Shown one piece after another: positions 5,732-59,699 of a stretch of 64,000 nt of DNA (positions are counted from its first letter, which is position 1; the number at the start of each line of letters is the position of its first letter). A program made the translations under genes and the position numbers. Location: the IMG/VR virus record IMGVR_UViG_3300037067_009690, positions 20,250 to 84,249 of that record, one strand, 5' to 3'. The notes below the pieces were generated by a model. It worked only from the letters and a program-made list of their open reading frames with translations. It was not told the DNA's origin and did no database searches. This DNA comes from a virus (Duplodnaviria > Caudoviricetes).

Positions 5732-5939
5732 CGCTGTCCGGGAGGCCGTGCACGCCCGGATCAGCGACGCCCTGACCGACGTCGGGATCGTCGGCCGGTG
5801 GGCCCTGGTCGCCGAGGTCATCGACATGGACGGCCGCACCTCGGTGCTGACCGTCCCTGCACCGGGACTCGCCGCATGGGAATGCATGGGCCTCCACGGG
5901 CACGCACAAGCCCTCGCGAAGGAGGCGAGCATCCAGTGA
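5715..5939 (+). CDS. hypothetical protein
   Basis: GGAGG RBS, operon context. Confidence 0.6.
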   Translation: MATPSDAVREAVHARISDALTDVGIVGRWALVAEVIDMDGRTSVLTVPAPGLAAWECMGLHGHAQALAKEASIQ

Positions 5940-6640
5940 CAATCATCCACCTGGTCGACCCCGGGGCTCCGGCCCGGCCGCCACTGACGGTCGCCGAGTC
6001 CCACGTCCTCAACGTCCCGGCCGAGACGAGCCGCGCGGCGCTCCTCGCGCATACCCGCAGGGTCGCCCAGCTCCTCGCGGAGCTGTCGACCGCTAGGGGC
6101 ATGCCGGAGGCCAGGCAGGTCCACGAGCACCACGGGTGGGCGTGGCTTCCCGCCCTGGGGGTGGCCCTTTCGCAGGCCCTGGACCTGGGCATGGAGACCG
6201 ATCCGGGGCGGGTTCACGGGTGGGTCGGGGACCATGCGTTCCCGTCCGGGAGATGGTCGATGCGGGATGCGCTGCGCGTAGATGTCCCCAGGTACCAGCA
6301 CGGCAGGACCGTGTCGTGGTGCCCGATCCCCGGGCCCCGAGGCGGGGCGTGCAAGCAACCCGGGAGAACGTTCACGCGGCTAGTCACCGACCCTATGACC
6401 GGTGACTGGGTGCTCGCCATGGTGTGCCCGGCGCATCGGCCCCAGGTCGACGCCGCGCGGATCGCCGCGCCAACGCCGCCACCGAACCGCGGCGGGATCC
6501 TCGCCAGGGTGTTCCCCGAGTGGGACCTCGACGGGTTGTACGGGTGGGCTGACGACCGGTACACAGCCACCGGCGAGGTCCTGGGGGCCAATCCGGTGAA
6601 GCGCCCGAGGCTCCGGGTTATAGACGGAGGGATATCTTGA
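5936..6640 (+). CDS. hypothetical protein
   Basis: GGAGG RBS, GTGA coupling. Confidence 0.6.
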   Translation: MTIIHLVDPGAPARPPLTVAESHVLNVPAETSRAALLAHTRRVAQLLAELSTARGMPEARQVHEHHGWAWLPALGVALSQALDLGMETDPGRVHGWVGDHAFPSGRWSMRDALRVDVPRYQHGRTVSWCPIPGPRGGACKQPGRTFTRLVTDPMTGDWVLAMVCPAHRPQVDAARIAAPTPPPNRGGILARVFPEWDLDGLYGWADDRYTATGEVLGANPVKRPRLRVIDGGIS

Positions 6641-7080
6641 GAGGGCGCGCCAATCGGGCTGTATTCATGGTCGACGGTCCGGCCGCTGGTTGTGTCGAGC
6701 AGGTAAAAGGCAACGTATTCAACGTTGTCGAAAGCGTAGGATCCCCACTCAGTGCGTATACGCAAGACGGGTACCCTGACGTATTTTTCACGTACACGGT
6801 GCGCACGATTGCAATCCCAATGGAACCGATCAGCAAATGCCCGGAATGCTTGTCGCGGCTAGAACCAATAGCATTCCGGTATATGGCGTACCACGATATC
6901 GGGTTATGCGGGCGCGTGAACGGAAATGATCCCGCCGTAATGGCAGCGCTCACGCCGTCTATCGCGTCCTGCGAAGAGACGCTTATCGAGAAGCGCACTC
7001 TGTACTGCAATGGGTGCCACCGCGTCAACCCAGGCCAGATATACAACCATGTCGCCAAGGAGACCACCAAAAATGGCTGA
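6637..7080 (+). CDS. hypothetical protein, lower GC, several Cys
   Basis: TTGA overlap; CPEC and C..CH motifs. Confidence 0.5.
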   Translation: MRGRANRAVFMVDGPAAGCVEQVKGNVFNVVESVGSPLSAYTQDGYPDVFFTYTVRTIAIPMEPISKCPECLSRLEPIAFRYMAYHDIGLCGRVNGNDPAVMAALTPSIASCEETLIEKRTLYCNGCHRVNPGQIYNHVAKETTKNG

Positions 7081-7360
7081 TACGACTGTTGAAACGCTAC
7101 GCCGTCAACTCATTACGGCATCAGAAATGTGGCAGAAACGATCCGACACCACACTGTCCAACACGGGACACGACGACCCAGGCGCCACCATGGCCGCCAT
7201 CTACGCATACACCCTCGCCGCAACTCTCCGGATCATCAATGACCAGTACAGCGAGGAAGTAGCACAGTGTCTCGCCACTGACATCACCGGCATCCTCACC
7301 GATGGTGACTTCGATGACGTCAACGGCGACATCCTCGTCGCAGAAGGCGGCGTCCGGTGA
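7073..7360 (+). CDS. hypothetical protein
   Basis: AAGGAG RBS before ATG 7073. Confidence 0.65.
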   Translation: MADTTVETLRRQLITASEMWQKRSDTTLSNTGHDDPGATMAAIYAYTLAATLRIINDQYSEEVAQCLATDITGILTDGDFDDVNGDILVAEGGVR

Positions 7361-7494
7361 TGTCGACTGACCCGGCTTGCGACATGTGTGGCGGGACTAT
7401 CCACGTGCGGCCCGTGAAGGTCGACCTGGATGTACCAGTGGTGTTGCTGTGCGGCCCGTGCTGGTACGGGATGCTCGCCGGGGAGGGTGCGTGA
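7360..7494 (+). CDS. small Zn-ribbon protein (MSTDPACDMCGG...LCGPCW), 44 aa, not in ORF track
   Basis: TGATG and GTGA coupling on both sides; two CxxC pairs. Confidence 0.6.
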   Translation: MSTDPACDMCGGTIHVRPVKVDLDVPVVLLCGPCWYGMLAGEGA

Positions 7495-7712
7495 CCGCCC
7501 ACGGCCCGGAAGAGTTGGCTCGGTGGATGGCGTGGCTGGGGACAACGGACTGCCCGTGCGACCACCGGTGGAACAACGCCAGGGCGACCCTGCACGGCAT
7601 GTGGATGCGCAACGGCTGGGAACGGACAACCACGGAGGCCGGATGCCCGCACCACGGGACCGACGCCGAGGCCGCCCGGGAACAGCGGAACAGGGAAGCG
7701 GGGATCTGGTGA
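7491..7712 (+). CDS. hypothetical protein
   Basis: GTGA coupling; WLG..DCPC...CP.HG. Confidence 0.6.
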   Translation: MTAHGPEELARWMAWLGTTDCPCDHRWNNARATLHGMWMRNGWERTTTEAGCPHHGTDAEAAREQRNREAGIW

Positions 7713-8272
7713 CTCGTCGTCGCCGAGCGTCTACCGTTCGCACCAGGCTGGTTACATCCACCGATGAGGCGCCGTCTAGACCGCACGCAAGAGCGAGAAC
7801 TGTCGCGCGGCAGGCAATGGATAGGACCGTGGCGGCACCATGGCGCAGCGGTGGCGACGACACCAGTAGCGCAACGGCGAAGCCGCGCCTTAAGGAAACG
7901 AAACCATCCGCAGCGAAACCTAGGGGTAAGACGAGGAGGCTCCGGCAATCGGAAGTCTGGGAGTCGAGCGACCTTAACCGCCCGCGCCCCAAGGTCGGCC
8001 CACTATCGCTTCCACGTATCCTGCATCTGCGGGCGATGCCGTACCGGGAGTATCTGAGGACACCGGAGTGGACGGCACGCAGAATCGGGAAGATCGTTGA
8101 CGCGGATGGGCGCTGCCAGGTTTGCAATTCTCCGAAGGATCTTGAGGTGCATCACCGAACCTATGAGCGTCGCGGCGCCGAGAAGTGGAACGACTTGACG
8201 GTGCTGTGCGCCGAGTGTCACGGGCTGTTCAGTGCGCACGGGAAAATGGTCAAGGATGCGGGTGGGAAGTAG
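7709..8272 (+). CDS. HNH endonuclease
   Basis: YREYLRTPEW..RR...RCQVC...LEVHH.TYER.G.E..NDL.VLC.ECH. Confidence 0.85.
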   Translation: MTRRRRASTVRTRLVTSTDEAPSRPHARARTVARQAMDRTVAAPWRSGGDDTSSATAKPRLKETKPSAAKPRGKTRRLRQSEVWESSDLNRPRPKVGPLSLPRILHLRAMPYREYLRTPEWTARRIGKIVDADGRCQVCNSPKDLEVHHRTYERRGAEKWNDLTVLCAECHGLFSAHGKMVKDAGGK

Positions 8273-8381
8273 GCGAGAAGCCCCACGGTCTACTGCACCA
8301 ACCGGGCCTGGGTGAGGGATAGGCGGAAACCATCCGTCGCGCGGACAGGAGTTATCCATCAGCGCGGCAGTGAAATGAAAC

Positions 8382-8411
8382 GGTCCGCCCGGGTTGCAGC
8401 CCGGGCGGACC
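8382..8411 (-). terminator. intrinsic terminator at convergent junction
   Basis: 12-bp stem GGTCCGCCCGGG/CCCGGGCGGACC; T-rich tail on the minus strand. Confidence 0.65.
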
Positions 8412-8456
8412 AGGAACCAGATGACCCCCTCTAAGGAATCTCAGGTGCGCGCCAAG

Positions 8457-8990
8457 CTACCCGATGATCCTCGCGGCTAGCCCGGCGGGCCACTCCGGGG
8501 GCCACCCGGCGGACACCGACACCAGCCACGCCACCACCGGAACCAGCGCGGCACGCGCCACAGCCTCCGACAGGCCACCGACCTTGAGGCCGACGCCGAC
8601 CCTGCACCACCAGGGCATCACCGGGATCCCGCCGTCCGCGCCGAACAAGAAGTCCCCGACCAGATGCGACGACCACCCGGCGACGAGGGCCACCGCCCAC
8701 CACGGCCCGGACGTGACCCACAGCGCCGCGCCTGCCACCAATGGCAGCGCGAACCAGTGAGTGATCCCGCGGTGCCGCATCGGGCCGCTCTCCCCCAACC
8801 ACTCGTCGGGGAGCCACCGGTCCAGGAGGCGCCACCACGCGGACTGGTCCATGTCGGGTGACGTGTGCCCGGCGGATGTGATCATCGCCAGCGGGACGCA
8901 GAGGACCTGTTGCCACCAGGGGAGGCCAAGGACGTGCCCGGTGACGATGCCGGTTGCGGCTCCCAGGAGAGCGTGTGTCGGGCCGTTCAC
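8457..8990 (-). CDS. membrane-bound metal-dependent hydrolase (YdjM-like)
   Basis: N-terminal TH, PDMD, HRGITH motifs, hydrophobic helices. Confidence 0.82.
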   Translation of the reverse strand: MNGPTHALLGAATGIVTGHVLGLPWWQQVLCVPLAMITSAGHTSPDMDQSAWWRLLDRWLPDEWLGESGPMRHRGITHWFALPLVAGAALWVTSGPWWAVALVAGWSSHLVGDFLFGADGGIPVMPWWCRVGVGLKVGGLSEAVARAALVPVVAWLVSVSAGWPPEWPAGLAARIIG

Positions 8991-9110
8991 TGAGTACCCC
9001 CATCAGGTTAGGTTAGGCTACTTTTACTGTCGATAACTCCTGCTTATCGGCGGTAACTTTTCACAAGAAAACCTTGATCGAAAACAGTTGTGATCTTGAA
9101 CCGTTGAAGA

Positions 9111-9437
9111 TCAGAAACGGTATGGGGACCGCCACACCCGCACCGCCACCACCACGACGCCCACCACGGCCGCACCCCCCGCTACCCATGGCCACGCCAT
9201 ACCCAGGACACGTGACCAGTCGATGGCCATGACCACCCTGGTCGCCGCGTACCCAATCGCGCCCAGGATGCCCAGCATGACCAGCCGGCCGCCGAACAGG
9301 GTCCGTAGCCATGACCGCTTGCCCAGCTCGATCTGAGCGAACCCCTTGGTCTGCTGGTCACCGATGAGCATGGCCAGGTGCGGGTGTCGTGTCCCGAACT
9401 CCTCGCGGGCACCCGCGCGACGCAACGGACTGGGCAT
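9111..9437 (-). CDS. small membrane protein (spread/Spd-like position)
   Basis: two C-terminal TM segments; in tra operon. Confidence 0.65.
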   Translation of the reverse strand: MPSPLRRAGAREEFGTRHPHLAMLIGDQQTKGFAQIELGKRSWLRTLFGGRLVMLGILGAIGYAATRVVMAIDWSRVLGMAWPWVAGGAAVVGVVVVAVRVWRSPYRF

Positions 9438-9452
9438 GAGGTCCTCCCCTGG

Positions 9453-9851
9453 TTAGGCGTGCGGGTCGAAGCTGGTCAGCTTCTGCTGTGACCTGCTGAA
9501 CGTGTTGTTGTACTCGATACCCATTTTCACCAGGAGTTTCGCCTCCGCCTCACGGCAGGACGCCAACGCCCGGTACAGGCGGCGCATCTTGCGCCTCGCC
9601 ACCATTTTGTCCACCCCGAACGGCCACGTCGAGGCCTCCTTGATCGCCCGGTCCAGGGCGTTCCCGGCCTCGTGGTACGCGGTGGAGTCGACCATCGCCT
9701 GGTGCCGGCAGGCGTTGCGCCACGCCCGGTGGGCCGATCCCTTACCTGTCCCTTCCCATCGCTGCACCGGCGAACTGGTCCTGGCCTGCTGCTGGCCCCC
9801 AGCCCCGTTGCGTGCGGAGCGTTCCTGAGTCTGCGTGCCCGACTCGCTCAT
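9453..9851 (-). CDS. putative plasmid transfer accessory protein (TraA-like)
   Basis: Adjacent to TraB; basic ARRKMRR helix resembles actinomycete plasmid TraA-type proteins; GGAGG RBS. Confidence 0.5.
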   Translation of the reverse strand: MSESGTQTQERSARNGAGGQQQARTSSPVQRWEGTGKGSAHRAWRNACRHQAMVDSTAYHEAGNALDRAIKEASTWPFGVDKMVARRKMRRLYRALASCREAEAKLLVKMGIEYNNTFSRSQQKLTSFDPHA

Positions 9852-9867
9852 CGTTACCCTCCGTAAG

Positions 9868-9981
9868 TTCAGTGATCGTTTTCAGCCGGTCGTTCAGCCC
9901 ACCTAAATCGCCGATTCAGCCCCACGCCAGGAGCTGAATCCCCTAAGGGGAGAGGCTCAGTTCAGTTCAGGAATTCAGCCC
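9868..9981. repeat. candidate clt (cis-acting locus of transfer), clustered TTCAG(CCC) repeats
   Basis: TTCAGCCC at 9893, 9915, 9974; TTCAGCCG at 9881; TTCAG at 9868, 9961, 9966; inverted CTGAA at 9934; directly downstream of traB. Confidence 0.55.
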
Positions 9982-12128
9982 GCCAGGGCGTCTCCGCTGT
10001 CGTCACCACCAGTAGTCGCCCCGGCATCCCACGTCGCTGGAGCGGACACGAAATGCCACCACACCGGGTCCTGCTCGTCCTGCGCCATCAGCCCGAGGTC
10101 GGCCAGGCGAGCCAGCCGCATGTACGGCCACGGCCGCCCCCCGCCACCCGGGATCGAATGCCACACCGTGGACAACTCAGTCTGCGACACGGACGACTGC
10201 CCGCCGTCGTGGCGCTCGATCAGCATCCGCCGGAACCGCTCGTTGCGTTCCGCCGTGGACAGCCGCGACGCAGTCAGGTCACCGAGATCCACGTCATCGG
10301 CTGACGTGTCCTGGTCATCACGGTCAGGGTCGACACCGGTCAGGTCGATCCCGTCGAGCATGGGCATGGGTAGGTCCTCCATGTCGTCTCCGGCCATGTC
10401 CAGGTCATCGCTGTCCTGGTCATGACCGGACTGGTCGGTGGTCACCGTGGACACGGTGACCTGGTCACGGCGGCTGGTCACGGGGGCAGTGGCCGTGGGC
10501 ATGTCCATCTGGTCATCGTCGCCGCTGGCCATGTCGGCTAGGACCTGGTCACGGCGGCCTAGCCAGTTCTGGTAGGCCGGGCCCAGCGCCGTGACCATCA
10601 CCGGGTCAAGTTGGGCACGGACATGGGCATGGGCACGGACCACCTCGGTGAGGACCGTCAGGTCCTCGGTGTCCCCGTCGCGCGTCGGCAGGTCACCGCG
10701 GATCGGCATCGCCCACCGGGACTCCGGGACGTCGGGCGCGGACATGATGTGCATCCCAGGCTTGCCCATCCACGCGTCCGGGCGTGCCCCCGCGTCGATC
10801 ACGTGATCCGGGAGGCAGAACCCAGCGTCGGCGATGTCGAGCACCCAGAAGCAGGTGCGGCGGATCAGGTTCGCGCGGACGTCGGTGTCCATCCGCCCAT
10901 GGGAGGCGCGCTGGAGAGACATGCAGAACTCGATGCCGGCCTTCCGTGCCTGCTCGGCGATCTTCACTAGCGCACCGTTGTCGACGAGCCATGCGGCTTC
11001 CTCGAACTGGACGAACACCTTCGGGATCCCGTGGCGCGTGAACGCCCTCGGCTCCCACTTCGTCATCCGATGCGACGCCAGGTCCGCGATCCGCGCAGGG
11101 ACGGCCCGGAGGATCCCAGCGACCATCGCCTTCGCGTCCTTGTCGTCCACGGCTGGCCATGCGACGCCGTCGATGATCGGCGCGGCGGACTGTGGTCCGG
11201 CGATCGGGTCGCACCACAGGACACACACGTCCCGGCGGGTCATCATCCTGGTCGCCTTGACCAGGTCCCGGATGGACTTCCCTGATCCAGTGGTGCCCAT
11301 GACCAACTCGTGACCAGCGAACACGGTCTCTGCTGGTGTCCCATCCGCGTAGGTCCCTACCCGGATCGGGTCAGCGATCGACAGGGCACCCGAGAAACCC
11401 ACAGGTGGCGCCGGGGGCTCGAATGGCATTGTCGCGTCAAGGCGTGTCGTGTCCACTGGCCGAATGATTGTCTGACCGCGGTGCTTCCCGATCCGCGCAA
11501 TCAACGTCCCCGGTCGCAGCTTAAACAGGGACTCCCACCGCTCAAGCTGTGACCTGACATCCGAGACAGTCTGGCCGTCCTTGTGGTCGATCACTACTTC
11601 CTGGGAGTCTTTCCCCGCGGGGCGAACAGTTGTTCCGGCAGCGAGCCCGAGGGCCTCCGGGTCGACGCCCTTGACGACGTGCGTGTCTTCGCCTGTACCC
11701 TTGACCCTTTTTGACTCCTGGGCGTTGAAGATCACCGCCGCGGCGACACCGGAAATGAGGTAGACGATCGCCCATGCAATCTCGTCGGCGAGCAACACTG
11801 AGAGTGCCGCTCCTACACCAGCGGCAGCGAACACCCCCGTGACGTTTTCACGTTCCACTTTCCGACGCGGACCCATGAGAACCCAGATCCGCCACGCAAC
11901 GAGACTGGTAGCAGCGAGGATGCACACGACAGTGAGCACCCATTCACTGGTCGACCCATACTTTTCCAGCGTCCCGTGCGCAGCAAGACCGGCTAGGTAA
12001 ATCCCGGGGAGGCACAGCCATGCGATTTCATCGCGTGTAGACCCCGACTTATTCAGGTCGCCTTTCTTCGGCGACCTGACGGACACAGACAGGGGCCTCG
12101 GCCTCGTTGACATCCTGGATTTCGCCAT
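9975..12128 (-). CDS. traB: TraB-like FtsK/SpoIIIE conjugal DNA translocase
   Basis: N-terminal TM helices, Walker A GTTGSGKS, Walker B FVQFEEAA, ARKAGI...SLQR, C-terminal winged helix; TAATG coupling to upstream gene. Confidence 0.85.
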   Translation of the reverse strand: MAKSRMSTRPRPLSVSVRSPKKGDLNKSGSTRDEIAWLCLPGIYLAGLAAHGTLEKYGSTSEWVLTVVCILAATSLVAWRIWVLMGPRRKVERENVTGVFAAAGVGAALSVLLADEIAWAIVYLISGVAAAVIFNAQESKRVKGTGEDTHVVKGVDPEALGLAAGTTVRPAGKDSQEVVIDHKDGQTVSDVRSQLERWESLFKLRPGTLIARIGKHRGQTIIRPVDTTRLDATMPFEPPAPPVGFSGALSIADPIRVGTYADGTPAETVFAGHELVMGTTGSGKSIRDLVKATRMMTRRDVCVLWCDPIAGPQSAAPIIDGVAWPAVDDKDAKAMVAGILRAVPARIADLASHRMTKWEPRAFTRHGIPKVFVQFEEAAWLVDNGALVKIAEQARKAGIEFCMSLQRASHGRMDTDVRANLIRRTCFWVLDIADAGFCLPDHVIDAGARPDAWMGKPGMHIMSAPDVPESRWAMPIRGDLPTRDGDTEDLTVLTEVVRAHAHVRAQLDPVMVTALGPAYQNWLGRRDQVLADMASGDDDQMDMPTATAPVTSRRDQVTVSTVTTDQSGHDQDSDDLDMAGDDMEDLPMPMLDGIDLTGVDPDRDDQDTSADDVDLGDLTASRLSTAERNERFRRMLIERHDGGQSSVSQTELSTVWHSIPGGGGRPWPYMRLARLADLGLMAQDEQDPVWWHFVSAPATWDAGATTGGDDSGDALAG

Positions 12129-13204
12129 TACCCGCTCACCTCTCTGCGCGTGTCTCGGTCGGCCCGGTACGCGGACCACAGGGCGCGAGCCTCCGGACCG
12201 GACAGTGGGTGCCCGGCAGCCCGTACGGCGGCGGGCAGGGTGTCCCTGTTCACGCGCTCTCCCACGCCCTCCATTCGCTCTGCTATTCCGCGGGCGACGG
12301 CGAGGAGTTCTCCGGGCACATCGACGGTCGCCGACACTCTCGTCGAATGGGGATTGGGTGTGGACGGCACTGCCGTCAGCGCCCGGCGGATGGGTGACCG
12401 CGGTAACTCGTGCTCCGGCGTGTGCACCACTGGCGGCGCACCATCCAGCACCAGATCAGCGAGACCAGCGAGGACCTCCCCCGGTGCCTGCCGGTCCACG
12501 GACCGGGTCACAGCAAGGACCTGCGCCGGATCCAGGGCACCCGTGCGCAGCCACCGGGCGACCTCACGGCGGACCCTCCGCCCGGACCGGCCACGGGCCG
12601 ACAGGCGCAGCGCGGTCCGCGCCGCACCAAGGACCGCCGCGTCCCGCCTTGCGCCCACAGCAGCCGACAGCCGCGCCAGATGCAGCCACGTCCGCGCCGA
12701 CTCCACCGGGGCCGTGACCCACAACCGCGCAGGGATCCGGTCGACTGCGGTCTGCTCGGCCCGCCAGTCGCCGATGGCGTCCCGCGCCGACAACTCGACC
12801 AGTACCGCCCACACGGCCGGGGCAACGACGTGCCACGGAACAGCTGCGGTCGTGTTCGCGGCGAGGGCGTTCAGGGCGATGGTCCCGGCGATCCCCGCGT
12901 GTGCGGTGACCCGCCACGCCGGCACCGGGCGACCGAGACGCGCGCCAGCCACATACCGCAAGGAAGCGCCGAGGATCAGAGCGTCCACGAGGAGCGGGAA
13001 CCCAGCCGCGAGCACCGGCGGGAAAACGTCGGCCGCCGCCCCATACAGGGACGCGTAGGACAGGGCCGCTCCGATCCCTGCCACAGCGGCGAGGATCCCC
13101 ACCGCTACCGCGCGGATACGAGCTACCCACGGCGGCGGCGGGCCGCCCGTGAGATGCCCGCACTCGGGGCACACCTCGGGTGGGCCCGGATGATCGACGG
13201 CCAT
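12128..13204 (-). CDS. DUF2637 / SpdB-like membrane protein with C-terminal HTH
   Basis: AALSYASLY..A...FPLLVDA..LG motif, 4 TM segments, RIP..LW...P..SAR.W. Confidence 0.72.
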   Translation of the reverse strand: MAVDHPGPPEVCPECGHLTGGPPPPWVARIRAVAVGILAAVAGIGAALSYASLYGAAADVFPPVLAAGFPLLVDALILGASLRYVAGARLGRPVPAWRVTAHAGIAGTIALNALAANTTAAVPWHVVAPAVWAVLVELSARDAIGDWRAEQTAVDRIPARLWVTAPVESARTWLHLARLSAAVGARRDAAVLGAARTALRLSARGRSGRRVRREVARWLRTGALDPAQVLAVTRSVDRQAPGEVLAGLADLVLDGAPPVVHTPEHELPRSPIRRALTAVPSTPNPHSTRVSATVDVPGELLAVARGIAERMEGVGERVNRDTLPAAVRAAGHPLSGPEARALWSAYRADRDTRREVSG

Positions 13205-13230
13205 GGTCGCCCCCTTTAGTCGAGTTGTCG

Positions 13231-13674
13231 TCAGTGGGCGCCATCGAAGCTGACGGCCTTGATGGCGGACCACGGCCCGTGCCCACGGTGGCCGCGGAAC
13301 CGGATGGTCTGCCGGCCGTACGCGCCGACCCGGTAGGTCCTGGACACGGTCGTCACGGTCCCGACCCCGCAGGTCTTGGCCACGGCGCGGCCCCAGCCAT
13401 GGAATCTGGCGCGCGCGTGCAGGTACGCGCAGTGGTGATCCCACTTCGCGTCCTTCACGGAGTAGGTGACCCGGATCCGGGTCGTCCCGTCGGCGGCGAC
13501 CCATGTCCCGGTGTGACTCACACACCCGGTCATCCCGGGCGCGCTGATCCGGTAGCGCCACCCGAATTCGTCGCCGCATTGCAGACGCTCGGATGCGGCG
13601 GCAGGGCCTGCTCCGGCAGTCAGTGCCGCGGCGATCAGCGCCGGCGCGGCGGCTGCGATGGTGATCCCGTGCAT
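13231..13674 (-). CDS. secreted protein
   Basis: AAGGAG RBS; signal peptide ending in PAAA; 4 Cys. Confidence 0.65.
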   Translation of the reverse strand: MHGITIAAAAPALIAAALTAGAGPAAASERLQCGDEFGWRYRISAPGMTGCVSHTGTWVAADGTTRIRVTYSVKDAKWDHHCAYLHARARFHGWGRAVAKTCGVGTVTTVSRTYRVGAYGRQTIRFRGHRGHGPWSAIKAVSFDGAH

Positions 13675-13778
13675 GTCGTGTCTCCTTGTGTCGTGTCTCC
13701 GTGCCGCCCCAGCCTGGGGGGTGGCTGGGGCGGCCGGTCCCGTCGCCGAGGGGGAGCAGCGACGGGGGTCAGTGGTGG

Positions 13779-14051
13779 TCAGGTGTCGGCTGGGAGGTCC
13801 AGTGCCGACGCCCGGATAGCGGGCTGGGCGTGCATGTCGTCGAGGTCCAGCTCGATGCGGGCCCGGTGCCGCTCGATCTCGGCGAGGGCAGCGGCCTGCC
13901 TGGCCTCGTCGAGGCGGGCAGCGACCCGGACCCGGACCGCAGTCCGGTCCCGCCACGCGTCGACGTGGATCAGGGCCACGGTCCCGGCCCACGACAGGAC
14001 CAGCAGTGCGCCGGCGCCGGTCGCTGCGGTGAGGATCTCCGCGGCGGTCAC
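13779..14051 (-). CDS. membrane-anchored hypothetical protein
   Basis: GTGA coupling; N-terminal TM plus coiled coil. Confidence 0.6.
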   Translation of the reverse strand: MTAAEILTAATGAGALLVLSWAGTVALIHVDAWRDRTAVRVRVAARLDEARQAAALAEIERHRARIELDLDDMHAQPAIRASALDLPADT

Positions 14052-14362
14052 GGTCCCTCCCTGCGTGGCCACGTGGCGGCCGTCCACTGGCCCTCAGGTG
14101 GCGCGGTCAACGTCACCGTGCCCCGTGTGCCACGGATGACACGGGTGCCGGTCAGGGCCGCGACGACGGCCCCGACCCTGTCGAGGAGGTCATCGGCGAT
14201 GACCTGCCGGTCGATGGCCGGAGTGTCGAGCCTGGTCCCGGCGTCTGTCATCGCGGACACCAGCGACCACGTCGCGGCCGCGAGGGCCTGCTGGGTCTCG
14301 GCCAGCTCCCGCTGGAGCCGGTCGACCTCAGCGATGAGGACCGCCGTGTCGTCGTCGGTCAC
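14048..14362 (-). CDS. hypothetical coiled-coil protein
   Basis: GTGA coupling. Confidence 0.6.
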   Translation of the reverse strand: MTDDDTAVLIAEVDRLQRELAETQQALAAATWSLVSAMTDAGTRLDTPAIDRQVIADDLLDRVGAVVAALTGTRVIRGTRGTVTLTAPPEGQWTAATWPRREGP

Positions 14363-15009
14363 CGGACTGCCACATCCGCGTCGCTGTGGACGTGGATACC
14401 GGTGATCTCCCCGGCGGAGATAGGGACACCGCCGACGGTGAACACGAGGTCACCGCTGCTGGCGTCGACGTCGGTGATGGGTCCGCGGATGCACCTGCGG
14501 ACCCCCTCGGGGTGCCGAGACCACGACCGGTCCGTCCACCACAGGGTCGCCGTCACCCCAGGAGAGAGCAGCCCGAATGTGGTGGTGGATGCCCCTGGTG
14601 GCATCGGGGGCAGGGTGTCGCCGCCGAGGATCAGCAGCGGGCACGGCTGGTCTGTGAGGGGCATCCGGTGCAGGGGGTGCTCGGCGATGGTGGGGATGAT
14701 CCGCCCGTAGCGGGGCGCGCCGGTGATGACACAGGCCGCCCACTCGGTGGCGGATGGCCGGAAGTTGGTGATGGTCGCCCACTGGCCGACTCGGGCGCGG
14801 GCAACGGCCCGGTTCCACCGGGCGCGGGCCTCGTAGTTGCGGCAGGTGGGCGCCAGGAGCCACCACCAGACGCCCACGATGGTCGCCAGGAGCAGGACCA
14901 CGGCGGTGGCCTGCCTGCCGGACGCGGCCGCGAATGGCGTCGCCAGGGCCACAGCGACCGTGGCGGGCACGATCGCCCGCATCTGTGTGTCGGTGCTCGG
15001 TGTCCTCAT
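14359..15009 (-). CDS. membrane protein, first gene of tra operon
   Basis: GAGGGGG RBS; two N-terminal TM segments. Confidence 0.55.
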   Translation of the reverse strand: MRTPSTDTQMRAIVPATVAVALATPFAAASGRQATAVVLLLATIVGVWWWLLAPTCRNYEARARWNRAVARARVGQWATITNFRPSATEWAACVITGAPRYGRIIPTIAEHPLHRMPLTDQPCPLLILGGDTLPPMPPGASTTTFGLLSPGVTATLWWTDRSWSRHPEGVRRCIRGPITDVDASSGDLVFTVGGVPISAGEITGIHVHSDADVAVR

Positions 15010-15062
15010 CGCGTCCCCCTCGGGCGCTGGGTGTCCGTGTCGCGGCCACCATACCCCGACGC

Positions 15063-15094
15063 GTCTACCGTTGTCTACCCCGATCGGATACAGT
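15063..15094. promoter_or_regulatory. divergent promoter / GntR operator candidate
   Basis: GTCTACC direct repeat at 15063 and 15073; TACAGT -10 7 nt before GTG 15102. Confidence 0.4.
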
Positions 15095-15101
15095 GGTGGC
15101 C

Positions 15102-15473
15102 GTGTCCACAACTGACGGCGGGATCGCCGCCCCCGCTGCCAGACTGTCCCGCGTGAGAGCCGGGACCCGATGGGCGCCGATCGCCGAGCACCTGCTCGGC
15201 GAGATCCGCGCGGGCCGGATACCGGTCGGCGGGATACTGCCGTCGATCACCGTGATCTGCGCTGAGCACCGGGTGGCGCGTCGCACCGCGTCCAAGGCTG
15301 TCGGGCACTTGCGGGACGTGGGCGTGGTGGAGATCCGGCCTGGCGCGGGGGCGTGGGTGGTAGCTGTGCCTGCCGATGGGTCGGCTGGTGTCGCGCTAGG
15401 TGTCCTGGCACGGCTGGACGGCCATGAGGCGCGGATCACCGCGCTGGAGGCCGAGGCACGCAGGCGCGGCTAG
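15102..15473 (+). CDS. GntR-family repressor (KorA/TraR/KorSA-like)
   Basis: W..IAEHL..EI.AG..P.G..LPS..I.AEH.VAR.T.KA..HL...G.V..RPGAGAWV wHTH; divergent from tra operon. Confidence 0.85.
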   Translation: MSTTDGGIAAPAARLSRVRAGTRWAPIAEHLLGEIRAGRIPVGGILPSITVICAEHRVARRTASKAVGHLRDVGVVEIRPGAGAWVVAVPADGSAGVALGVLARLDGHEARITALEAEARRRG

Positions 15474-15494
15474 GCGACGCTCGCCGGACGTGCG

Positions 15495-15520
15495 TGTGGC
15501 CCGACCGAAGCCGGGCCACA
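15495..15520. terminator. hairpin between convergent genes
   Basis: TGTGGCCCG/CGGGCCACA stem. Confidence 0.5.
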
Positions 15521-15529
15521 TTGTGCTGG

Positions 15530-15841
15530 TCAGTCGCTGGCAACGCCAGCCAGGGCCGTCACCATCCCTACGATGTTCTCGTGCCCGGCGGCGGACTCGG
15601 CCTCAGTGGAGTACCTGGCTGTGTACTCCTCATCCAGCTCCCCGTCCTTGAACACCATTGTTTCAAAGATCAGCGGCGGGCCAGACCCGAAGTTGTGGTC
15701 GATGACGAGGTGGATAGTGCTGACCAGGTAACCGCCTGTTTCTGTGCGGCCAACACGGCGAGACTTGTCATTGAACATCGCGGTCAGCGTCTCGGGTGTT
15801 GGATCACTTACGGATTCACCGGCCCGGGTGTAGTACGTCAT
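15530..15841 (-). CDS. conserved phage hypothetical protein
   Basis: VST.HL.IDHNF..GPPLIFETMVF...RYSTEAE..AGH motif. Confidence 0.8.
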   Translation of the reverse strand: MTYYTRAGESVSDPTPETLTAMFNDKSRRVGRTETGGYLVSTIHLVIDHNFGSGPPLIFETMVFKDGELDEEYTARYSTEAESAAGHENIVGMVTALAGVASD

Positions 15842-16161
15842 CGCGTTCCCCATTCTTCATTCTTCGGATTGCCGAGGCGTTTCGTGACGCCCGGGTGGGT
15901 CATGCTGGCGACCCGCCCGATCTCCCTGAGCGACGCGCCCCGGGCGCGGGCGGCGCGCATCAGGGCCGTCTGCTGGTCCCGGTCGGCGGCAATCCGGGCC
16001 GTCACGTCGGCTAGGGCCGCGAGGACGGCGTCGGCAGTGTCCTCGTCGAGGAGGACCGTTCCCGCGGTCGTGGTCAGCCACACCGCGTCAGTGTCGCCCG
16101 AAAGCGGGCACCCCTCAGGGGAGCCCGCCACAGGCAGGTCGGTAGTCACCTCCACCACCAT
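15838..16161 (-). CDS. HTH DNA-binding protein
   Basis: C-terminal ARARGASLREIGRVASMTHPGVTKRL HTH. Confidence 0.7.
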   Translation of the reverse strand: MVVEVTTDLPVAGSPEGCPLSGDTDAVWLTTTAGTVLLDEDTADAVLAALADVTARIAADRDQQTALMRAARARGASLREIGRVASMTHPGVTKRLGNPKNEEWGTR

Positions 16162-16619
16162 GCGGTAACCCGCTCCCGGAGCGACCATCGGCAGGGCGTC
16201 CCCTGCCCCATGTCGCATCCCCCCTGTATCCGGCCACAGGCGCAGAACATCTCTGCCCCCGGGTCGGTGTCCCCACATTCGGGGCAGGACCCGATCCCCT
16301 CGGGGTCCATGCGGTGCTGGGCGACCCCCGACCGGAGATACCGGGTGGCCCCGGCCATCGCCTTGGCCAGGGTCGGCGCGTTCGTGACGACCCCGCCGAC
16401 CAGACCCAGGCGGTCAGCGGGAACCCACTGCCACCGCCACCCGTGTTCCATGCCGTCGGCGCGGACAATCACGGCCCGACGGCCGCTGCGGACTAGGACC
16501 GCCAGCCGGTCCTGGTACTTCGTCCGGAAACCTGCGAGGCGGGCAGCTAGGCGGATATCCGCCCCGAGACTGTTTTCCGCGTCCGCAAGGAAACATGCGG
16601 ATTTTGCAAGATTGAACAT
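16146..16619 (-). CDS. hypothetical protein with Zn ribbon
   Basis: GGAGAGG RBS; CPECG...CACG. Confidence 0.55.
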   Translation of the reverse strand: MFNLAKSACFLADAENSLGADIRLAARLAGFRTKYQDRLAVLVRSGRRAVIVRADGMEHGWRWQWVPADRLGLVGGVVTNAPTLAKAMAGATRYLRSGVAQHRMDPEGIGSCPECGDTDPGAEMFCACGRIQGGCDMGQGTPCRWSLRERVTAWWWR

Positions 16620-16620
16620 T

Positions 16621-16848
16621 TCAATTCTTCCTCTCCGCCGCGCGTCGCGCGGATCTCTCGGCCTTGGCGGCCTTCTTGGCGGCGGCTTTCCGCCACCGGT
16701 CTTCCCGTTCCCGACGGAGACGCGCCTCCGTCGTTTCTGGGCGGCGGAGGACAGCCGCGTCCCGGTACCGCCGCATAGCGGTCTGCTCGGCGGTTTCCGG
16801 GGTCCACGAAAATGACTCATCCTCGCGATGAAACCCTAGATACCCCAT
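16621..16848 (-). CDS. basic hypothetical protein
   Basis: TGATG coupling. Confidence 0.55.
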   Translation of the reverse strand: MGYLGFHREDESFSWTPETAEQTAMRRYRDAAVLRRPETTEARLRREREDRWRKAAAKKAAKAERSARRAAERKN

Positions 16849-17054
16849 CAGCTCTGCGCTCTGCTAATAGCCGCACTCTTCCGAGTGTGATTCCAGACCT
16901 TCAGTCGAAGGCCCGTGCGCGTCCAGGACCGGATTTCCTTCGTCGATATCACAAGCCGTGCCGTCCAGCACCACTCCGTGTGGGGCGCAGGGTCCCCCAC
17001 ATACCACCCCTGGGTGGCCTTATGGTTTTTCCATGACTTCCACAGAACTGGCAT
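16848..17054 (-). CDS. hypothetical protein
   Basis: AGGAGGAAAGG RBS before ATG 17054. Confidence 0.6.
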   Translation of the reverse strand: MPVLWKSWKNHKATQGWYVGDPAPHTEWCWTARLVISTKEIRSWTRTGLRLKVWNHTRKSAAISRAQS

Positions 17055-17086
17055 TTCCTTTCCTCCTGCGTCCTGGTGGGGATCCT

Positions 17087-17128
17087 GGCTTCCACGGTCG
17101 CCCCTGGGGCACCGGGGGCGACCGAAGC
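17087..17128 (-). repeat. conserved intergenic stem-loop, copy 1
   Basis: GCTTCGGTCGCCCC...GGGGCGACCGTGGAAGCC, 2 nt after a stop codon. Confidence 0.7.
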
Positions 17129-17130
17129 AG

Positions 17131-17388
17131 TCAGGAATCAATGGCGTCCTCAGCGTCTCTCCGCACCCCGGATACGAGTCGCAGCCATTCGTTGACCCAG
17201 ATAGTTGGGTCTTTCTGGGTTGCCGCACTGAGCCCGGTAACAATGCGGGGGCCGGCGAGGAAATCCACCTCATAGATATCGGCTGCGAGTTTGTTGACCG
17301 TGGCGATAGCCTGGGTCATCGCCACCACCGCCTCCTCGACTGGCTTGAGCGCAGCGACAAGCTCAGCGTGATTGGTTATCTTCCTCAT
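17131..17388 (-). CDS. hypothetical protein
   Basis: GAGGGAG RBS. Confidence 0.65.
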   Translation of the reverse strand: MRKITNHAELVAALKPVEEAVVAMTQAIATVNKLAADIYEVDFLAGPRIVTGLSAATQKDPTIWVNEWLRLVSGVRRDAEDAIDS

Positions 17389-17421
17389 GATGCTCCCTCT
17401 TTCCATTCGGCGCTGTGTCCT

Positions 17422-17463
17422 GGCTTCCACGGCCGTCCCCGGTGTCCCGGGGGCGACCGAAGC
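17422..17463 (-). repeat. conserved intergenic stem-loop, copy 2
   Basis: GCTTCGGTCGCCCCCGG...GGGGACGGCCGTGGAAGCC. Confidence 0.7.
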
Positions 17464-17465
17464 GG

Positions 17466-17909
17466 TCAGGGCCTGGGGATCTCAGTGATCCCGGCCTGGT
17501 AGCCGTCGGCCCCGAGGGCCTGCGCCTCGCCCTCCGCGTCGGCCAGGCTCCAGCACGTCCGCCCGTCGACCTCGTACAGGGCACCGTCGGTGTCGGAGAG
17601 CCGGTGGAGTCCCCGGCAGCCGATGATCCGGCCGTTGTCGTCGCGGACCTCACCCCAGGGGGCGACGACGTCGGCCCGCGTCCCCTGGAGTGCCAGGAGG
17701 CACACCAGGGACACGATGTAGGTGGTGTCCTTGGCGGGTGACGCGAGCCCGGCCAGGCGCCCGTAGCGGACGGTGGTGACGTCCCCGGCCGTCCCGATGG
17801 CCTCGGTGGTGATCCGCGCCGCCTGGCCGGTGGCCGGGTAGGTGGCGGCGGTGGAGCCGTCGGCGTCGAGGATCGTCACGGCGTGGGGGGTGAGGTTGAC
17901 GTACTGCAT
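17466..17909 (-). CDS. conserved phage protein (NLTPH...VRD..GRIIGCRGL family)
   Basis: VNLTPH, YIVS, VRDDNGRIIGCRGL motifs; AAGGAG RBS. Confidence 0.8.
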   Translation of the reverse strand: MQYVNLTPHAVTILDADGSTAATYPATGQAARITTEAIGTAGDVTTVRYGRLAGLASPAKDTTYIVSLVCLLALQGTRADVVAPWGEVRDDNGRIIGCRGLHRLSDTDGALYEVDGRTCWSLADAEGEAQALGADGYQAGITEIPRP

Positions 17910-46095: not shown

Positions 46096-46563
46096 TCAAC
46101 TTTCTGCCCGCGCTGTGACCCTCGACCTCGGGTGCGCCGGGATCGGAGGCGTCTGCCCGCCACTGGCCCTGGCCTGCGCCTCAGCGGCCAGGGCCCATGC
46201 ATGCAGGTCCTCAGCCCAGTCTCGCACGCACGTCATCTCCGCCCGGTCGACGGCACGGTCCCGCGTGAGCGTGTTCACCCGGTCACTGAGTCCACGGATC
46301 TCGTCGGCATCGACCGTGGCCCGCGCTTCCAACGCCGCGACCTTGACCCGCAGGGCCTCGTTCTCCCCGGACAAGGCGTCGACCCGGCGGGTGAGGTCCT
46401 CAACCATTGCCCGCGCTGCGCGCTCGATGGCCTCCGCTGCGGTGGCCTCCGATTCCTTGGCCTGCGCGAGGGCCGGGCGCCTACCGATCCATGATCCGAG
46501 GAGTCCTGACGCCCCGAGGGCACTCCCGGCGGCGATCAGTGATTCGGGGTCTGACCACCTCAC
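46096..46563 (-). CDS. membrane-anchored coiled-coil lysis-cassette protein
   Basis: N-terminal TM plus coiled coil; GTGA coupling to endolysin. Confidence 0.7.
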   Translation of the reverse strand: MRWSDPESLIAAGSALGASGLLGSWIGRRPALAQAKESEATAAEAIERAARAMVEDLTRRVDALSGENEALRVKVAALEARATVDADEIRGLSDRVNTLTRDRAVDRAEMTCVRDWAEDLHAWALAAEAQARASGGQTPPIPAHPRSRVTARAES

Positions 46564-47342
46564 GTTCGGACTCGCAGGGACGACAGGGCGGTGGTAATAG
46601 CCTGGAGGGTCTTTCCCTGGGCTTTCACGGCCTCGGCGAGGGCGGCGACAGCGTGGCGCATCTCATCCTGGGTGGCCTCGATGTCGGCGAGGGTGGTCCG
46701 CGGGGTACGCGTCTGGGATTCCCGGTCTTTCCCGTTGGGGTTCGGGATAGTATCCGCGCCCCACACGGCGTCAGCTATTTCTTTCGCGTTCGGCATGTCG
46801 CCCTCCTGTAGCACGTCGCGGATCTTCTTCCGCATCCACTCATCAGATATCCCGGCCGGGTCGATTTTCCGGTACGGCGCCCACGTCCGGTGCGAGCAAT
46901 ACCACGTCTCATCGCGGCCCATGACCCGCAGTTGCGCTGCGTGCACGCGTGGCATTGCCCACAGTTGCCAGTCGGTGTATTTCCCGTCTCCGTCGTCCTC
47001 GGCTTCGCAGCCCATGACGTGGACGTTTCCTGTGATGCCACGGTATGCCCCGGGTCCGGCGTTGTTGGCTTTCCCAGCCGCGACAATCCATACCCGCTGA
47101 TCCGCGTCAGCCAGGCCCCTCGGCAGAAACGTGGTGCACAGGGGCCCGGACAGCCCAGGGCGGCCATGGACACACACATCAAGAGACGCCCGGTCACCGT
47201 TGCGTGGCCCGGCCGTGTGATGCCCCATCGACACCATCGGTGTATACGGGACCACGCCCCGGGACTCCCAGCCGCGGACACACTCCACCCGCAAACCAAC
47301 CCGCGCCAACTCCCTAGGGAGCCCCAACACCAGACCCACCAC
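46560..47342 (-). CDS. endolysin, N-acetylmuramoyl-L-alanine amidase (Amidase_2)
   Basis: GWE.RG...GHHTAG...GRPGL.GPLC..G.AN.AG.G...G.EAE..SHR.WAP.RKIDP. Confidence 0.9.
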   Translation of the reverse strand: MVGLVLGLPRELARVGLRVECVRGWESRGVVPYTPMVSMGHHTAGPRNGDRASLDVCVHGRPGLSGPLCTTFLPRGLADADQRVWIVAAGKANNAGPGAYRGITGNVHVMGCEAEDDGDGKYTDWQLWAMPRVHAAQLRVMGRDETWYCSHRTWAPYRKIDPAGISDEWMRKKIRDVLQEGDMPNAKEIADAVWGADTIPNPNGKDRESQTRTPRTTLADIEATQDEMRHAVAALAEAVKAQGKTLQAITTALSSLRVRT

Positions 47343-59500: not shown

Positions 59501-59699
59501 AGTTCATGCGGTCAAGGGAATCCTTGATACCGTCCGCCATGAGCTTCCCGGCGGTGCGGCCCATCACCTGGCCGATCCTCGCCGCCACCTGCTCGGCGTC
59601 CCTCAGCGTCCCGCGCTCAAGATCAGCCCGGAACCGCGAGAGATCCGGGGTGACAGTAACCTCAACTTCACCGGCGAAAGTCGCCACCCCGGACACCAC
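53532..59699 (-). CDS. tape measure protein with C-terminal NlpC/P60 domain interrupted by an intein
   Basis: 2055 aa, coiled-coil repeats, TM/W-periodic region, GPGSGTSD.IPA.LSDGEYV, PYVWGA.GP..YDC-[intein]-SGL. Confidence 0.92.
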   Translation of the reverse strand: MVSGVATFAGEVEVTVTPDLSRFRADLERGTLRDAEQVAARIGQVMGRTAGKLMADGIKDSLDRMNFTAVGAQTGRQFGREFAKVANAEIRSALKDATVKVTADTARARQEINALSDNVTVNVDANVDRAFAEITALHELADEPVTVNVDADTKPATAAVEDFEERSNESAPRAGGRYGGAFGRAIKTALQAALQALPEVEINADSSDADREIAGVRSELKALSDKRVGIDIDADEARRQITVLQERLSVLSSNAANIQVRVDAAAAQAKLAAFSAQVARVSADDVNVDVDVDTGAARASLLALSVQASATSIGLRGVYIAAIAISPALAPIGAVGVGALMAVAGAAGAAAAGIGTLALGLAPVIGAVQAMGQATGSSGQSASRAAGQHDQLASAVRGVEDAHRAVERATRDAAQAEEDSARRIEDATQALDDAQAEAARDRVTALRGIRDAERDLADAQDRAAQDRLDAVQAVTDAEQALSDAQADGERSRLDSLRRIADAEQGVGDAQDRAADSRLASLRDIERAERSMADAARDVLGAEQDLADARNEAADNLASYSERLTRADLDERSAVLDLADAQQRLADVEVDPGATDAERERARIAVERATLSLADQRDEAAALRDEQAAAVAAGVDGAERVRSAQERLADAHRDAADAARAVDDARAEAVRREQGALDAIGAAEQALTDARDEAARRAVEADRASAEAQRALDEARAAAAQQELDGARAIADAQRDLDDARARSDLQRQDSLRAIADAEQAVADAQDAAAEAQIRSAEAIADAQRGVVDAQRGVQEASKSAGEVGSASVNKLNDAMAKLTPEGVAFATFIRGTLIPAFRELSRTAQTGMLPGLQAGLTAMLPILPVITDLVDNVARAMGGLFQRAGQALGGPFWMDFFTFIADTAGPALTIMGETIGNFTEGLAALFMAFYPVSLQFGEALLSMSQAFSAWAQGAAQSEAFQSFLAYIRDTGPLVAQILGALVLAVTNIAVGLAPLGDILLRVILAVSQFIAALDPIVITAVAVAIGAVVAAMTVLNAVMAVAALEAIPLGLVIGVVIAAVVALGAALVYAYQHSETFRDIVNTAWAAIRDTVVAAWEGFIQPALQAMWSFLRDDLGPVFSWLWRNIVVPAFTGIYLAVQYAWNTVISPIFTNIALFVRTVLGPVFKWLYDSIISPVWTAIHTAINVAWNDVVLPVFRAINRFVLDVLGPLFTTYLRPAIELAWSLISTAISIAWVAIKVVFAAVKLYIETVLAPVFKWLYETIIKPVWDKVSSKISTVWNTGIKPVFKLLGDYITDHLAPAFKLGVDAISEAWERVADVAKKPIRFIVDTVINKGIIAPFKTVASWFDVDSSNIRPIKLPEGFASGGYIRGPGSGTSDEIPAWLSDGEYVIRSAAVKKLGVRYLDLLNRADEYDLGGDPSGTARFADGGRVQAAKAWLPSVDPLPYVWGAVGPYAYDCCLPGRTLVAGPYGPKRIDELEPGDIIWSRDDEGSIVEKKIVDAWRSIDQITYRLRLRGRNIDASANHPFLRVVMTSKPHGAGRFNGKGVRAEWDVEWTRLDELKRGDLVVVLDEAPDMGDPHPVLPDGTEVTEELAWLLGAIIGDGTVTDDGVRLAAFGDFQDDAIRAFASVCGLTATPHATAGLIVNSRKVASSLREIGMWRRGADKRVPDVVWSWSRDLQLAFARGYGDADGYDGRDGRSYAGCSRRLIDEVRTIHLQAGHRVTNVTVNRRKKPITIKGKLVKNALPLYSFTVSGYDREPYANMEHDKPMVRRMFTGGAFGLRSVAGIDELEVEATYDLNVEGHHNFVADGVVVHNSGLTGEAFNRLEGRQSYRRAFTTSSDFGSLGFARGLGLYTIGVDPGQHMAGALGGLPFEAASTASGIFVGANAKSVTSFPQQWYLKDLGGSKSGEHGLLDILDPIGSLIDMIRKPLRLLQEIDGYPFGRLAAGMPIRLVDEIVEYAKGILPGFSAGGLVEYDDGGWLPPGLSTVVNNTGSPEPVLSGGQWDAIRGGGDTQVGPIDVKVFVGDQEITDIVRTEISMSEADTVARVLAGVR
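54252..55325 (-). mobile_element. intein with LAGLIDADG homing endonuclease (358 aa)
   Basis: starts CLPGRTLV..., block B HPFL, LAWLLGAIIGDG and ARGYGDADG, ends YDLNVEGHHNFVADGVVVHN followed by Ser. Confidence 0.93.

Follow-up and report, generated by a model that had tools for sequence, protein, structure and literature searches.

We analysed a stretch of 64,000 nt of viral DNA (the window) that comprises bases 20250–84249 of the IMG/VR record IMGVR_UViG_3300037067_009690. The virus record is 84,249 bp long and is classed as linear with a CheckV completeness of 91%; it has a G+C content of 66.4% and 111 open reading frames (ORFs), and no tRNAs were found in its sequence. Coordinates below are those of the window unless they are called contig positions. 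At 8381–15473 lies a compact module in which a leftward operon, forming a single minus-strand unit, stands opposite a divergent gene for a GntR-family regulator. The operon codes for a homolog of TraB, the DNA-transfer ATPase of Streptomyces plasmids, together with a DUF2637 membrane protein, several small proteins and a YdjM-family hydrolase homolog, and a short-repeat array follows the traB gene. Frame plots and inspection of start codons showed that all ten reading frames of the module are intact and have a strong coding signal (third-position G+C, GC3, of 0.80–0.90). An initial annotation of this DNA had listed these operon genes and the divergent GntR gene, and the frame plots and profile matches confirm that they are all present with intact frames.

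A consensus scan of the minus strand identified a promoter-like site in front of the operon, with a –35 box TAGACA at 15077–15072 and a –10 box TATGGT at 15053–15048. The first gene (14359–15009, on the minus strand like all genes of the operon; GC3 0.89) has a ribosome-binding site, GGGGGA, before its ATG, and encodes a membrane protein of 216 amino acids (aa) with two hydrophobic segments. Its stop is overlapped by the start of a gene for a helical protein of 104 aa (14048–14362; GC3 0.89), which is followed by genes for a 102-aa protein with one transmembrane segment (13779–14087; GC3 0.90) and a cysteine-containing 147-aa protein (13231–13674; GC3 of 0.93–0.97 in the frame plot). The translation of the 147-aa protein begins with a signal peptide that has an alanine-rich hydrophobic core and an AAS/E site, so this protein is probably exported. 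The 216-aa protein matched no Pfam, NCBIfam or PHROG profile, and the 104-aa and 147-aa proteins likewise had no family match.

The next gene (12128–13204) encodes an integral membrane protein of 358 aa with about four hydrophobic segments in its hydropathy profile. It matches the DUF2637 family (PF10935, E = 1.8e-11; 44.7 bits against a cutoff of 22.8), which we take to be the equivalent of SpdB2, and it had no match in tblastn searches against plasmids. The initial annotation was right to call it DUF2637/SpdB-like but placed its start at 13579 rather than 13204. Its stop overlaps the start of traB (9975–12128, 717 aa) in the sequence TAATG, a coupling that had also been proposed and that is visible in the DNA. 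Beyond traB and the repeat array (9865–9980) come two genes that are conserved with the module in its relatives, one for a soluble basic protein of 132 aa (9453–9851; 54–60% identity) and one for a 108-aa protein with two transmembrane segments (9111–9437; 39–42% identity). We rejected the identification of the 132-aa protein as TraA-like, because it has no Pfam, NCBIfam or PHROG match, and the NCBIfam search yielded no TraA model at E ≤ 0.1. The last gene (8457–8990) encodes a 177-aa homolog of the YdjM family of membrane-bound metal-dependent hydrolases (PF04307, E = 2.8e-11). It is the best conserved gene of the module, with 65% identity in a related locus (L007, described below), but tblastn found no match to it among phages and plasmids. 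The operon is closed by a hairpin with a 13-bp stem, 11 of whose pairs are G-C, and a T-rich tail (8412–8381, minus strand), which from its sequence would act as a strong intrinsic terminator. Between this terminator and the next well-supported gene, about 1.3 kb (7080–8380) contain no ORF with a clear coding signal. An Rfam scan of 6500–17500 and a megablast search with 7000–17000 against phages and plasmids gave no match.

The identification of TraB rests on a match that runs from end to end of the NCBIfam model for plasmid TraB (NF041214, plasmid_TraB; E = 1.5e-77, 261.6 bits), with residues 53–707 of the protein aligned to positions 12–630 of the 639 in the model. It also matches phrog_24831 (E = 6.6e-54). 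No NCBIfam model of FtsK or EccC was hit at E ≤ 0.1, and Pfam gave nothing at E ≤ 0.01, including FtsK_SpoIIIE, so in hidden Markov model (HMM) searches the protein does not group with the chromosomal translocases, in agreement with the initial annotation, which had called it TraB. Because its score is well below the 800-bit equivalog cutoff of the NCBIfam model, we read it from its sequence as a remote TraB subfamily. The protein contains the motifs GxTGxGK (Walker A), FEEA (Walker B) and LQRAS, and in an alignment with eight relatives the residues G278, T280, G283, K284, E377 and R407, which lie in the Walker A, Walker B and arginine-finger regions, are invariant in all nine sequences. A profile built from this alignment hits FtsK motor structures in the PDB (E = 6e-5).

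An AlphaFold model of TraB (pLDDT of 61 over the whole model) predicts, in order, four N-terminal helices (residues 31–141), a beta-rich domain, an ATPase core, a disordered acidic linker, and a C-terminal unit (residues 625–693, pLDDT 65–88) with the succession H-b-H-H-b-b, which resembles a winged-helix domain. The best Foldseek matches of the model are the FtsK motors 6t8o and 2ius (E = 1e-7, TM-score about 0.48 on the target), followed by the FtsK-like coupling protein TcpA and then EccC. The predicted order of domains resembles the architecture that has been described for TraB (PMC4447253).

The closest relatives of this TraB, which are 41–56% identical over their full length, come from metagenome assemblies only. 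Named TraB proteins of Streptomyces are 34–40% identical over about half the length, and the best plasmid TraBs are 32–36% identical over about half the length, which covers the motor only. In a quick IQ-TREE maximum-likelihood tree, unrooted and without an FtsK outgroup, the nine close sequences formed one clade (SH-aLRT 100) that is separate from a group containing the chromosomal and plasmid TraBs of Streptomyces and the TraB of plasmid pCQ4. A tblastn search of 50,697 phage records with TraB gave no match; a close TraB is thus absent from the sequenced phage isolates among them. Pattern scans for relatives of TraB found nothing in IMG/VR or in GTDB species genomes, and only one contig, of 3.7 kb, in JGI metagenomes.

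The array that follows traB (9865–9980) contains seven direct copies and one inverted copy of CTGAA on the coding strand, with a consensus of about GGGCTGAAaCC. The first copy overlaps the traB stop codon, the inverted copy is carried by a small hairpin, and the last four copies are 12–22 nt apart. Such a concentration is not seen elsewhere in the record: one 130-nt bin holds seven copies, the next-densest bin in 84 kb holds three, and the background on the coding strand is 0.65 per kb. The same layout recurs in the orthologous spacers of two independent metagenome contigs, with 8 + 1 copies in L007 and, mostly as CTGAC, 7 + 1 copies in L008. In each case there are copies near the traB stop, then a hairpin with one inverted copy about 45 nt further on, and then four to six more copies, the step between these trailing copies being mostly 12–13 nt in the relatives. 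Because the layout is kept while the TraBs of these two loci are only 49–51% identical to that of the record, the array is under selection. Published clt sites, the cis-acting sites of transfer, are short direct repeats recognised by the C-terminus of TraB (PMC4447253). At the level of sequence, then, a site of this type with short direct repeats is present on the same replicon, and the CTGAA array, which occupies the place next to traB where clt is known to lie, is the best candidate for the role of clt. Across the whole record the related word GCTGA[AC] occurs 79 times on the minus strand and 32 times on the plus strand, a 2.5-fold skew that may reflect either the dominant coding strand or an orientation bias tied to the recognition word of TraB.

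The GntR-family gene (15093–15473, plus strand; PF00392, E = 1.8e-7) is short. Its most plausible start is the GTG at 15093, which gives a protein of 126 aa with little beyond the DNA-binding domain; its NCBIfam matches are to the N-terminal helix-turn-helix (HTH) of the HutC/PhnF type only, and it has no C-terminal effector domain. It shares with the repressors of kil-kor systems a GntR winged-helix N-terminus and a position divergent from a tra/spd operon, but differs from TraR, KorA and KorSA, which are about 240–260 aa long and have a HutC-type UTRA domain, in that it has about 126 aa and its HTH alone was matched. The initial annotation had likened it to TraR/KorA/KorSA; a divergent GntR gene is indeed there, but it is not one of the type of about 250 aa with an effector domain. 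The intergenic region between the gene and the operon is 83 bp long and contains two direct repeats of GTCTACC, 10 nt apart (15063–15069 and 15073–15079), one of which overlaps the –35 box. The repeats are a candidate operator, and the short GntR protein is a candidate repressor of the Kor type.

The module lies in a genome that codes for a virion. In the left-hand end of the record, which precedes the window, the minus strand carries a small-terminase-like gene and genes for the large terminase (TerL; phrog_2, E = 3e-45), the portal (phrog_533, E = 9e-95), a scaffold-like protein and the major capsid protein (phrog_283, E = 1e-63), as well as a transferase cassette whose final protein has a head-tail connector domain. 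At the right end of the window, again on the minus strand, are genes for tail chaperones and further tail proteins, the major tail protein and tail terminator, a head closure protein and head-tail adaptor, and a minor head protein whose 5'-cut gene runs off the contig. The tape measure (2055 aa; 53532–59699, minus strand; phrog_4197, E = 4e-132) and an endolysin (46560–47342, minus strand) are also in the window. The initial annotation had noted tail and lysis genes on the contig; matches to the tail terminator, major tail protein, tape measure and endolysin substantiate this, and capsid, portal and terminase genes are present in addition. The record therefore has the complete set of virion, packaging and lysis genes that is expected of a phage-plasmid. 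In its middle there are further genes with phage-family matches (phrog_1499, E = 1.6e-89; phrog_3657, E = 7e-109) and genes for a DUF3799 nuclease, a DUF5131 protein and a polynucleotide kinase-phosphatase (PNKP). Both ends of the record fall within one head-tail morphogenesis block, and neither is flanked by host DNA. Because of the position of the ends, we regard the assembly as a permuted, near-complete genome of a tailed phage with the operon inside it, the phage being one of a filamentous soil actinomycete. No terminal overlap was found between the two ends; the record is likely to be circular, and a direct junction of its ends is possible.

Several other features of the record are of interest in their own right. 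A full-length IS-type transposase gene (contig positions 9061–10284, plus strand; phrog_506, E = 3e-132) lies about 10 kb before the start of the window, between the packaging genes and the early region, and appears to represent an insertion sequence in a phage genome. The transferase-like cassette (contig positions 285–3214, minus strand), directly after the major capsid gene, codes for a galactosyl transferase (phrog_1721) and a methyltransferase-like protein (phrog_2675), and it is its last protein that is fused to a head-tail connector domain (phrog_2322). Residues 819–1447 of the tape measure also match an endolysin family (phrog_971, E = 2.7e-81), so the protein carries a wall-hydrolase domain. 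The PNKP gene (PF25109, E = 7e-52, with AAA_33) and then the DUF5131 gene (E = 4e-88) are at 745–2896 on the plus strand. Two direct repeats of 53 nt (17083–17135 and 17418–17470; 87% identical, 335 nt apart), each of which holds a G+C-rich hairpin, lie on the right-hand side of the module, where the coding signal is weak.

To judge whether the module belongs to the phage, we compared it with its metagenomic relatives. A 23.5-kb Logan contig (L007/L010) has the same core order of DUF2637, TraB, array, two small genes and YdjM; its DUF2637 ortholog is 45% identical to that of the record. This contig also has the DUF5131 gene, which at 56% identity is the best conserved backbone gene between the two, three further homologs of genes in the record, and phage early-type genes (ThyX, VRR-NUC, a DNA methylase and a T4 endonuclease V-like gene). 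In a JGI contig (L008), TraB and the two small genes are followed by a convergent homolog (54% identity) of the gene at 5798–6640, which in the window is the nearest well-supported convergent gene to the left of the module, beyond a small ORF at 6637–7080; L008 has no YdjM and no counterpart of the stretch of about 1.3 kb at 7080–8380. Across these loci the module genes (39–65% identity) and the backbone genes (33–56%) have diverged to a similar extent.

Because the relatives share both the core of the module and backbone genes, and one of them keeps the left junction, the comparison speaks against both an assembly chimera and a recent insertion of a plasmid or of an actinomycete integrative and conjugative element (AICE). 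The record is a metagenome assembly, so a fragment of a plasmid or AICE could in principle have been joined to a phage contig by error. We consider this hardly credible: phage-family genes flank the module on both sides, its neighbor at the left junction is also the convergent neighbor of the module in the independent JGI contig, and in the Logan contig the module is found together with DUF5131 and further backbone genes. A captured piece of an AICE or conjugative plasmid could instead be real but mere passenger DNA, neutral or decaying and with no function for the phage. The G+C content of the module (69.0%, against 66.2% in the rest of the record), the location of the nearest named TraB homologs on Streptomyces plasmids, and the orientation of the module relative to DUF5131, which differs between the record and L010, all lend something to this idea. 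We nevertheless think it improbable, since the ten frames are intact with a strong coding signal, the best plasmid TraB is so distant, the clade of this TraB is distinct from the TraBs of plasmids and chromosomes and turned up exclusively on contigs where the neighboring genes are of phage type, and the cis array and gene order have been kept at about 50% protein divergence. Nor does the module look like an AICE, in which Int/Xis and RepSA/RepAM genes are joined to the transfer genes and bounded by att repeats: profile searches with Pfam, NCBIfam and PHROG found no integrase, excisionase, Rep or NUDIX genes adjoining it, and there are no att-like direct repeats on its flanks. The proposal that it is an AICE fragment in a prophage is thus disfavored, the orthologous modules too being located beside backbone genes. 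Together the sequence comparisons argue that the module is native to the phage lineage.

We also searched for genes by which the phage might be maintained as a plasmid or prophage. The deviant Walker A motif of ParA (KGGxGK) does not occur in any frame of the record, where the only P-loop ORFs are those of PNKP, an SbcC-like ATPase and TraB, and no partition protein or plasmid Rep initiator was matched among the approximately 60 of the 111 ORFs that were scanned. The only integrases are two tyrosine recombinase genes about 9 kb to the left of the module, beyond phage genes. The initial annotation had suggested a phage-plasmid or a conjugative prophage; the first of these labels is not borne out by the searches for Par and Rep genes, nor the second by the distance of the sole integrases from the module.

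We conclude that the module is probably an intact Streptomyces-type operon for TraB-dependent transfer and spread of double-stranded DNA, and a native part of the genome of a tailed actinophage. The central claim of the initial annotation, that a complete TraB-type transfer and spread set lies inside a virion-encoding genome, is upheld, and the set includes a candidate cis site. Certain observations weigh against our conclusion. The TraB score of 262 bits is far under the equivalog cutoff; the GntR protein is without the effector domain of TraR and KorA and has no counterpart in L010; the first four genes of the operon are not conserved in the relatives; and the scan of some 60 ORFs revealed neither plasmid maintenance genes nor a clear lysogeny module. 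Furthermore, no related contig is long enough for virion genes and this TraB to be seen together again, and scans of IMG/VR, GTDB and JGI data found no second long record that joins this TraB clade to virion genes.

From the gene identities, the operon structure, the conserved array and the residence of the module in a phage, we infer DNA binding by TraB and GntR, control of expression, and transfer itself, as follows. Binding of the short GntR protein to the GTCTACC repeats over the –35 box would keep the operon low, according to the logic of kil-kor systems. On expression, TraB would enter the membrane through its four predicted N-terminal helices and assemble into an FtsK-like hexameric pump, and its predicted C-terminal winged-helix domain would recognise the phased GGCTGAA array downstream of traB as the cis site. 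The substrate of the pump would be the phage genome as an unprocessed circle, which TraB would drive across septal cross-walls or into another hypha in contact with the first. Passage through the membrane and wall, and spread through the mycelium, may be helped by the DUF2637 protein, which is SpdB2-like, by the small proteins of the membrane and exported kinds, and by the YdjM-type hydrolase. Dual spread, by virions and by hyphal transfer, can reasonably be inferred by analogy with pZL12, which is a precedent. We hold more tentatively, and with a little less than even confidence, that this is a distinct TraB subfamily, so far known from metagenomes only, which occurs only with phage-type backbones and its own GGCTGAA array, and which would allow a true tailed phage, one that has no genes for plasmid partition or replication, to be transmitted in a second way, without particles, through cross-walls and contacts between hyphae.

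Two other uses of the same machinery should be considered. Once a virion has infected in the ordinary way, replicating phage DNA might be carried by TraB together with the Spd-like proteins across cross-walls into neighboring compartments of one mycelium only, which would enlarge the productive or lysogenised zone without conjugation between individuals. That no plasmid maintenance genes were found fits such a restricted role, but we regard it as unlikely to be the sole one, because the gene set is that of intermycelial transfer, for which TraB alone suffices in Streptomyces plasmids (PMC4447253); the two roles are in any case not mutually exclusive and are inseparable by sequence. Alternatively, the pump could serve a different purpose, such as moving the DNA of the host or of a competitor, arresting growth (a 'kil' or pock effect) in favor of the phage, or excluding superinfection. 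Unregulated traB is toxic in Streptomyces plasmids, hence the kil-kor control (PMC4447253), and the short GntR protein and YdjM hydrolase are non-standard parts for a plasmid transfer region. A conserved, phased array on the phage's own DNA directly after traB points instead to the phage genome as the substrate, and we think a different purpose very improbable.

If transfer of the kind that we favor does occur, it bears on how phages are thought to move. Phages and conjugative elements are usually treated as having exclusive routes of transfer, and a current review states that no phage-plasmid or prophage is conjugative (PMC12282955), a statement that a particle-free route, if true, would contradict. 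The view of exclusive routes is built on markers of type IV secretion, and it misses the TraB system of mycelial actinomycetes, which needs a single protein. If the module is functional, phages of this kind would spread without the receptor-dependent step of adsorption, which would change the view of their host range, of plaque and pock formation, and of gene flow in soil Streptomyces. The idea itself was published with pZL12 in 2010, and a single case adds only a little to it. What this record contributes is an example that is intact and has well-defined limits, from a lineage with no relationship to that of pZL12 and pCQ4; its candidate cis site is clear and its regulator is short. We found no systematic study of TraB in phages in the literature. 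Homologs of SpdB2 are known in the actinophages phiC31 and VWB (PMC4447253).

Compared with the transfer regions of Streptomyces plasmids such as pSVH1 (traR/spdB3-spd79-spdB2/traB-clt) and pIJ101 (korA-tra-spd), the module likewise has an FtsK-like TraB, whose N-terminus is predicted to lie in the membrane and whose C-terminus is a candidate for DNA recognition, a putative cis site of short direct repeats by traB, a protein of the SpdB2 type, coupled small membrane and exported proteins, and a divergent GntR gene (PMC4447253). It differs from them in its repeat word, GGCTGAA at a phasing of 12–13 nt rather than the published 8-bp words, in a regulator without a ligand domain, in its phage replicon, in the addition of a YdjM homolog, and in a TraB that is at most 35% identical to those of the plasmids, over the motor only. 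The protein is like FtsK and SpoIIIE in its motor fold and in its Walker A/B and arginine-finger motifs, and the model suggests a likeness also in four helices at the N-terminus, a long linker and a winged helix at the C-terminus. Its best-matching family is plasmid TraB, however, and its gene belongs to the operon of a mobile element and is accompanied by a repeat array.

The closest plasmid relatives of the portal of the record are phage-like Streptomyces plasmids of 88–93 kb. One of them, NZ_CP109440.1, is homologous to the record in TerL (45% identity), portal (39%), scaffold, major tail, tape measure and DUF2637 proteins, and has a similar layout, with a GntR gene opposite a leftward operon that encodes DUF2637 and a large TraB-like ATPase. 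It differs from the record in its genes for ParA, a ParB-like protein, DciA and an integrase, and in its ATPase, a protein of 725 aa that resembles TraB only faintly (E = 1.2e-5) and gave no tblastn match to the TraB of the record. This circular plasmid of 87.9 kb, from the cultured strain Streptomyces sp. NBC_01483, is typed as non-mobilizable and carries a full siphovirus module; it has the appearance of a phage-plasmid that carries a transfer locus and has gone unrecognised.

Among elements that combine virion genes with a TraB locus, the 84.8-kb Streptomyces plasmid pCQ4 (NC_019307) has a locus with traA-traB, small genes and a divergent GntR gene that immediately adjoins the genes for terminase, portal and capsid. 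When its first 50 kb, with the tra locus and virion genes, were compared with the record, only TraB (36% over 312 aa) and one HNH gene matched, so the backbones are unrelated, and the GntR proteins of pCQ4 (246 aa) and NZ_CP109440 (252 aa) are about twice as long as that of the record (126 aa). A further precedent is pZL12, the plasmid form of phage ZL12, a cultured Streptomyces 'plasmid-phage' that was reported by Zhong et al. (2010, J Bacteriol 192:3747; cited in PMC3583192 and PMC4487206) to spread without particles as well; a syntenic relative, pSLE1, is described as having ParAB (PMC4487206). Both pZL12 and pSLE1 have ParAB, whereas in the record no ParA/ParB or plasmid Rep was found. Relative to pZL12 and pCQ4, the TraB of the record is in a separate clade, its GntR is short and a YdjM gene is part of its operon. 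A virion-forming element with a TraB locus is therefore of a kind that has been known since pZL12, and the record, which differs from the published cases in its unrelated backbone, separate TraB clade, short GntR, YdjM gene in the operon and lack of detectable plasmid maintenance genes, is another and divergent example of it.

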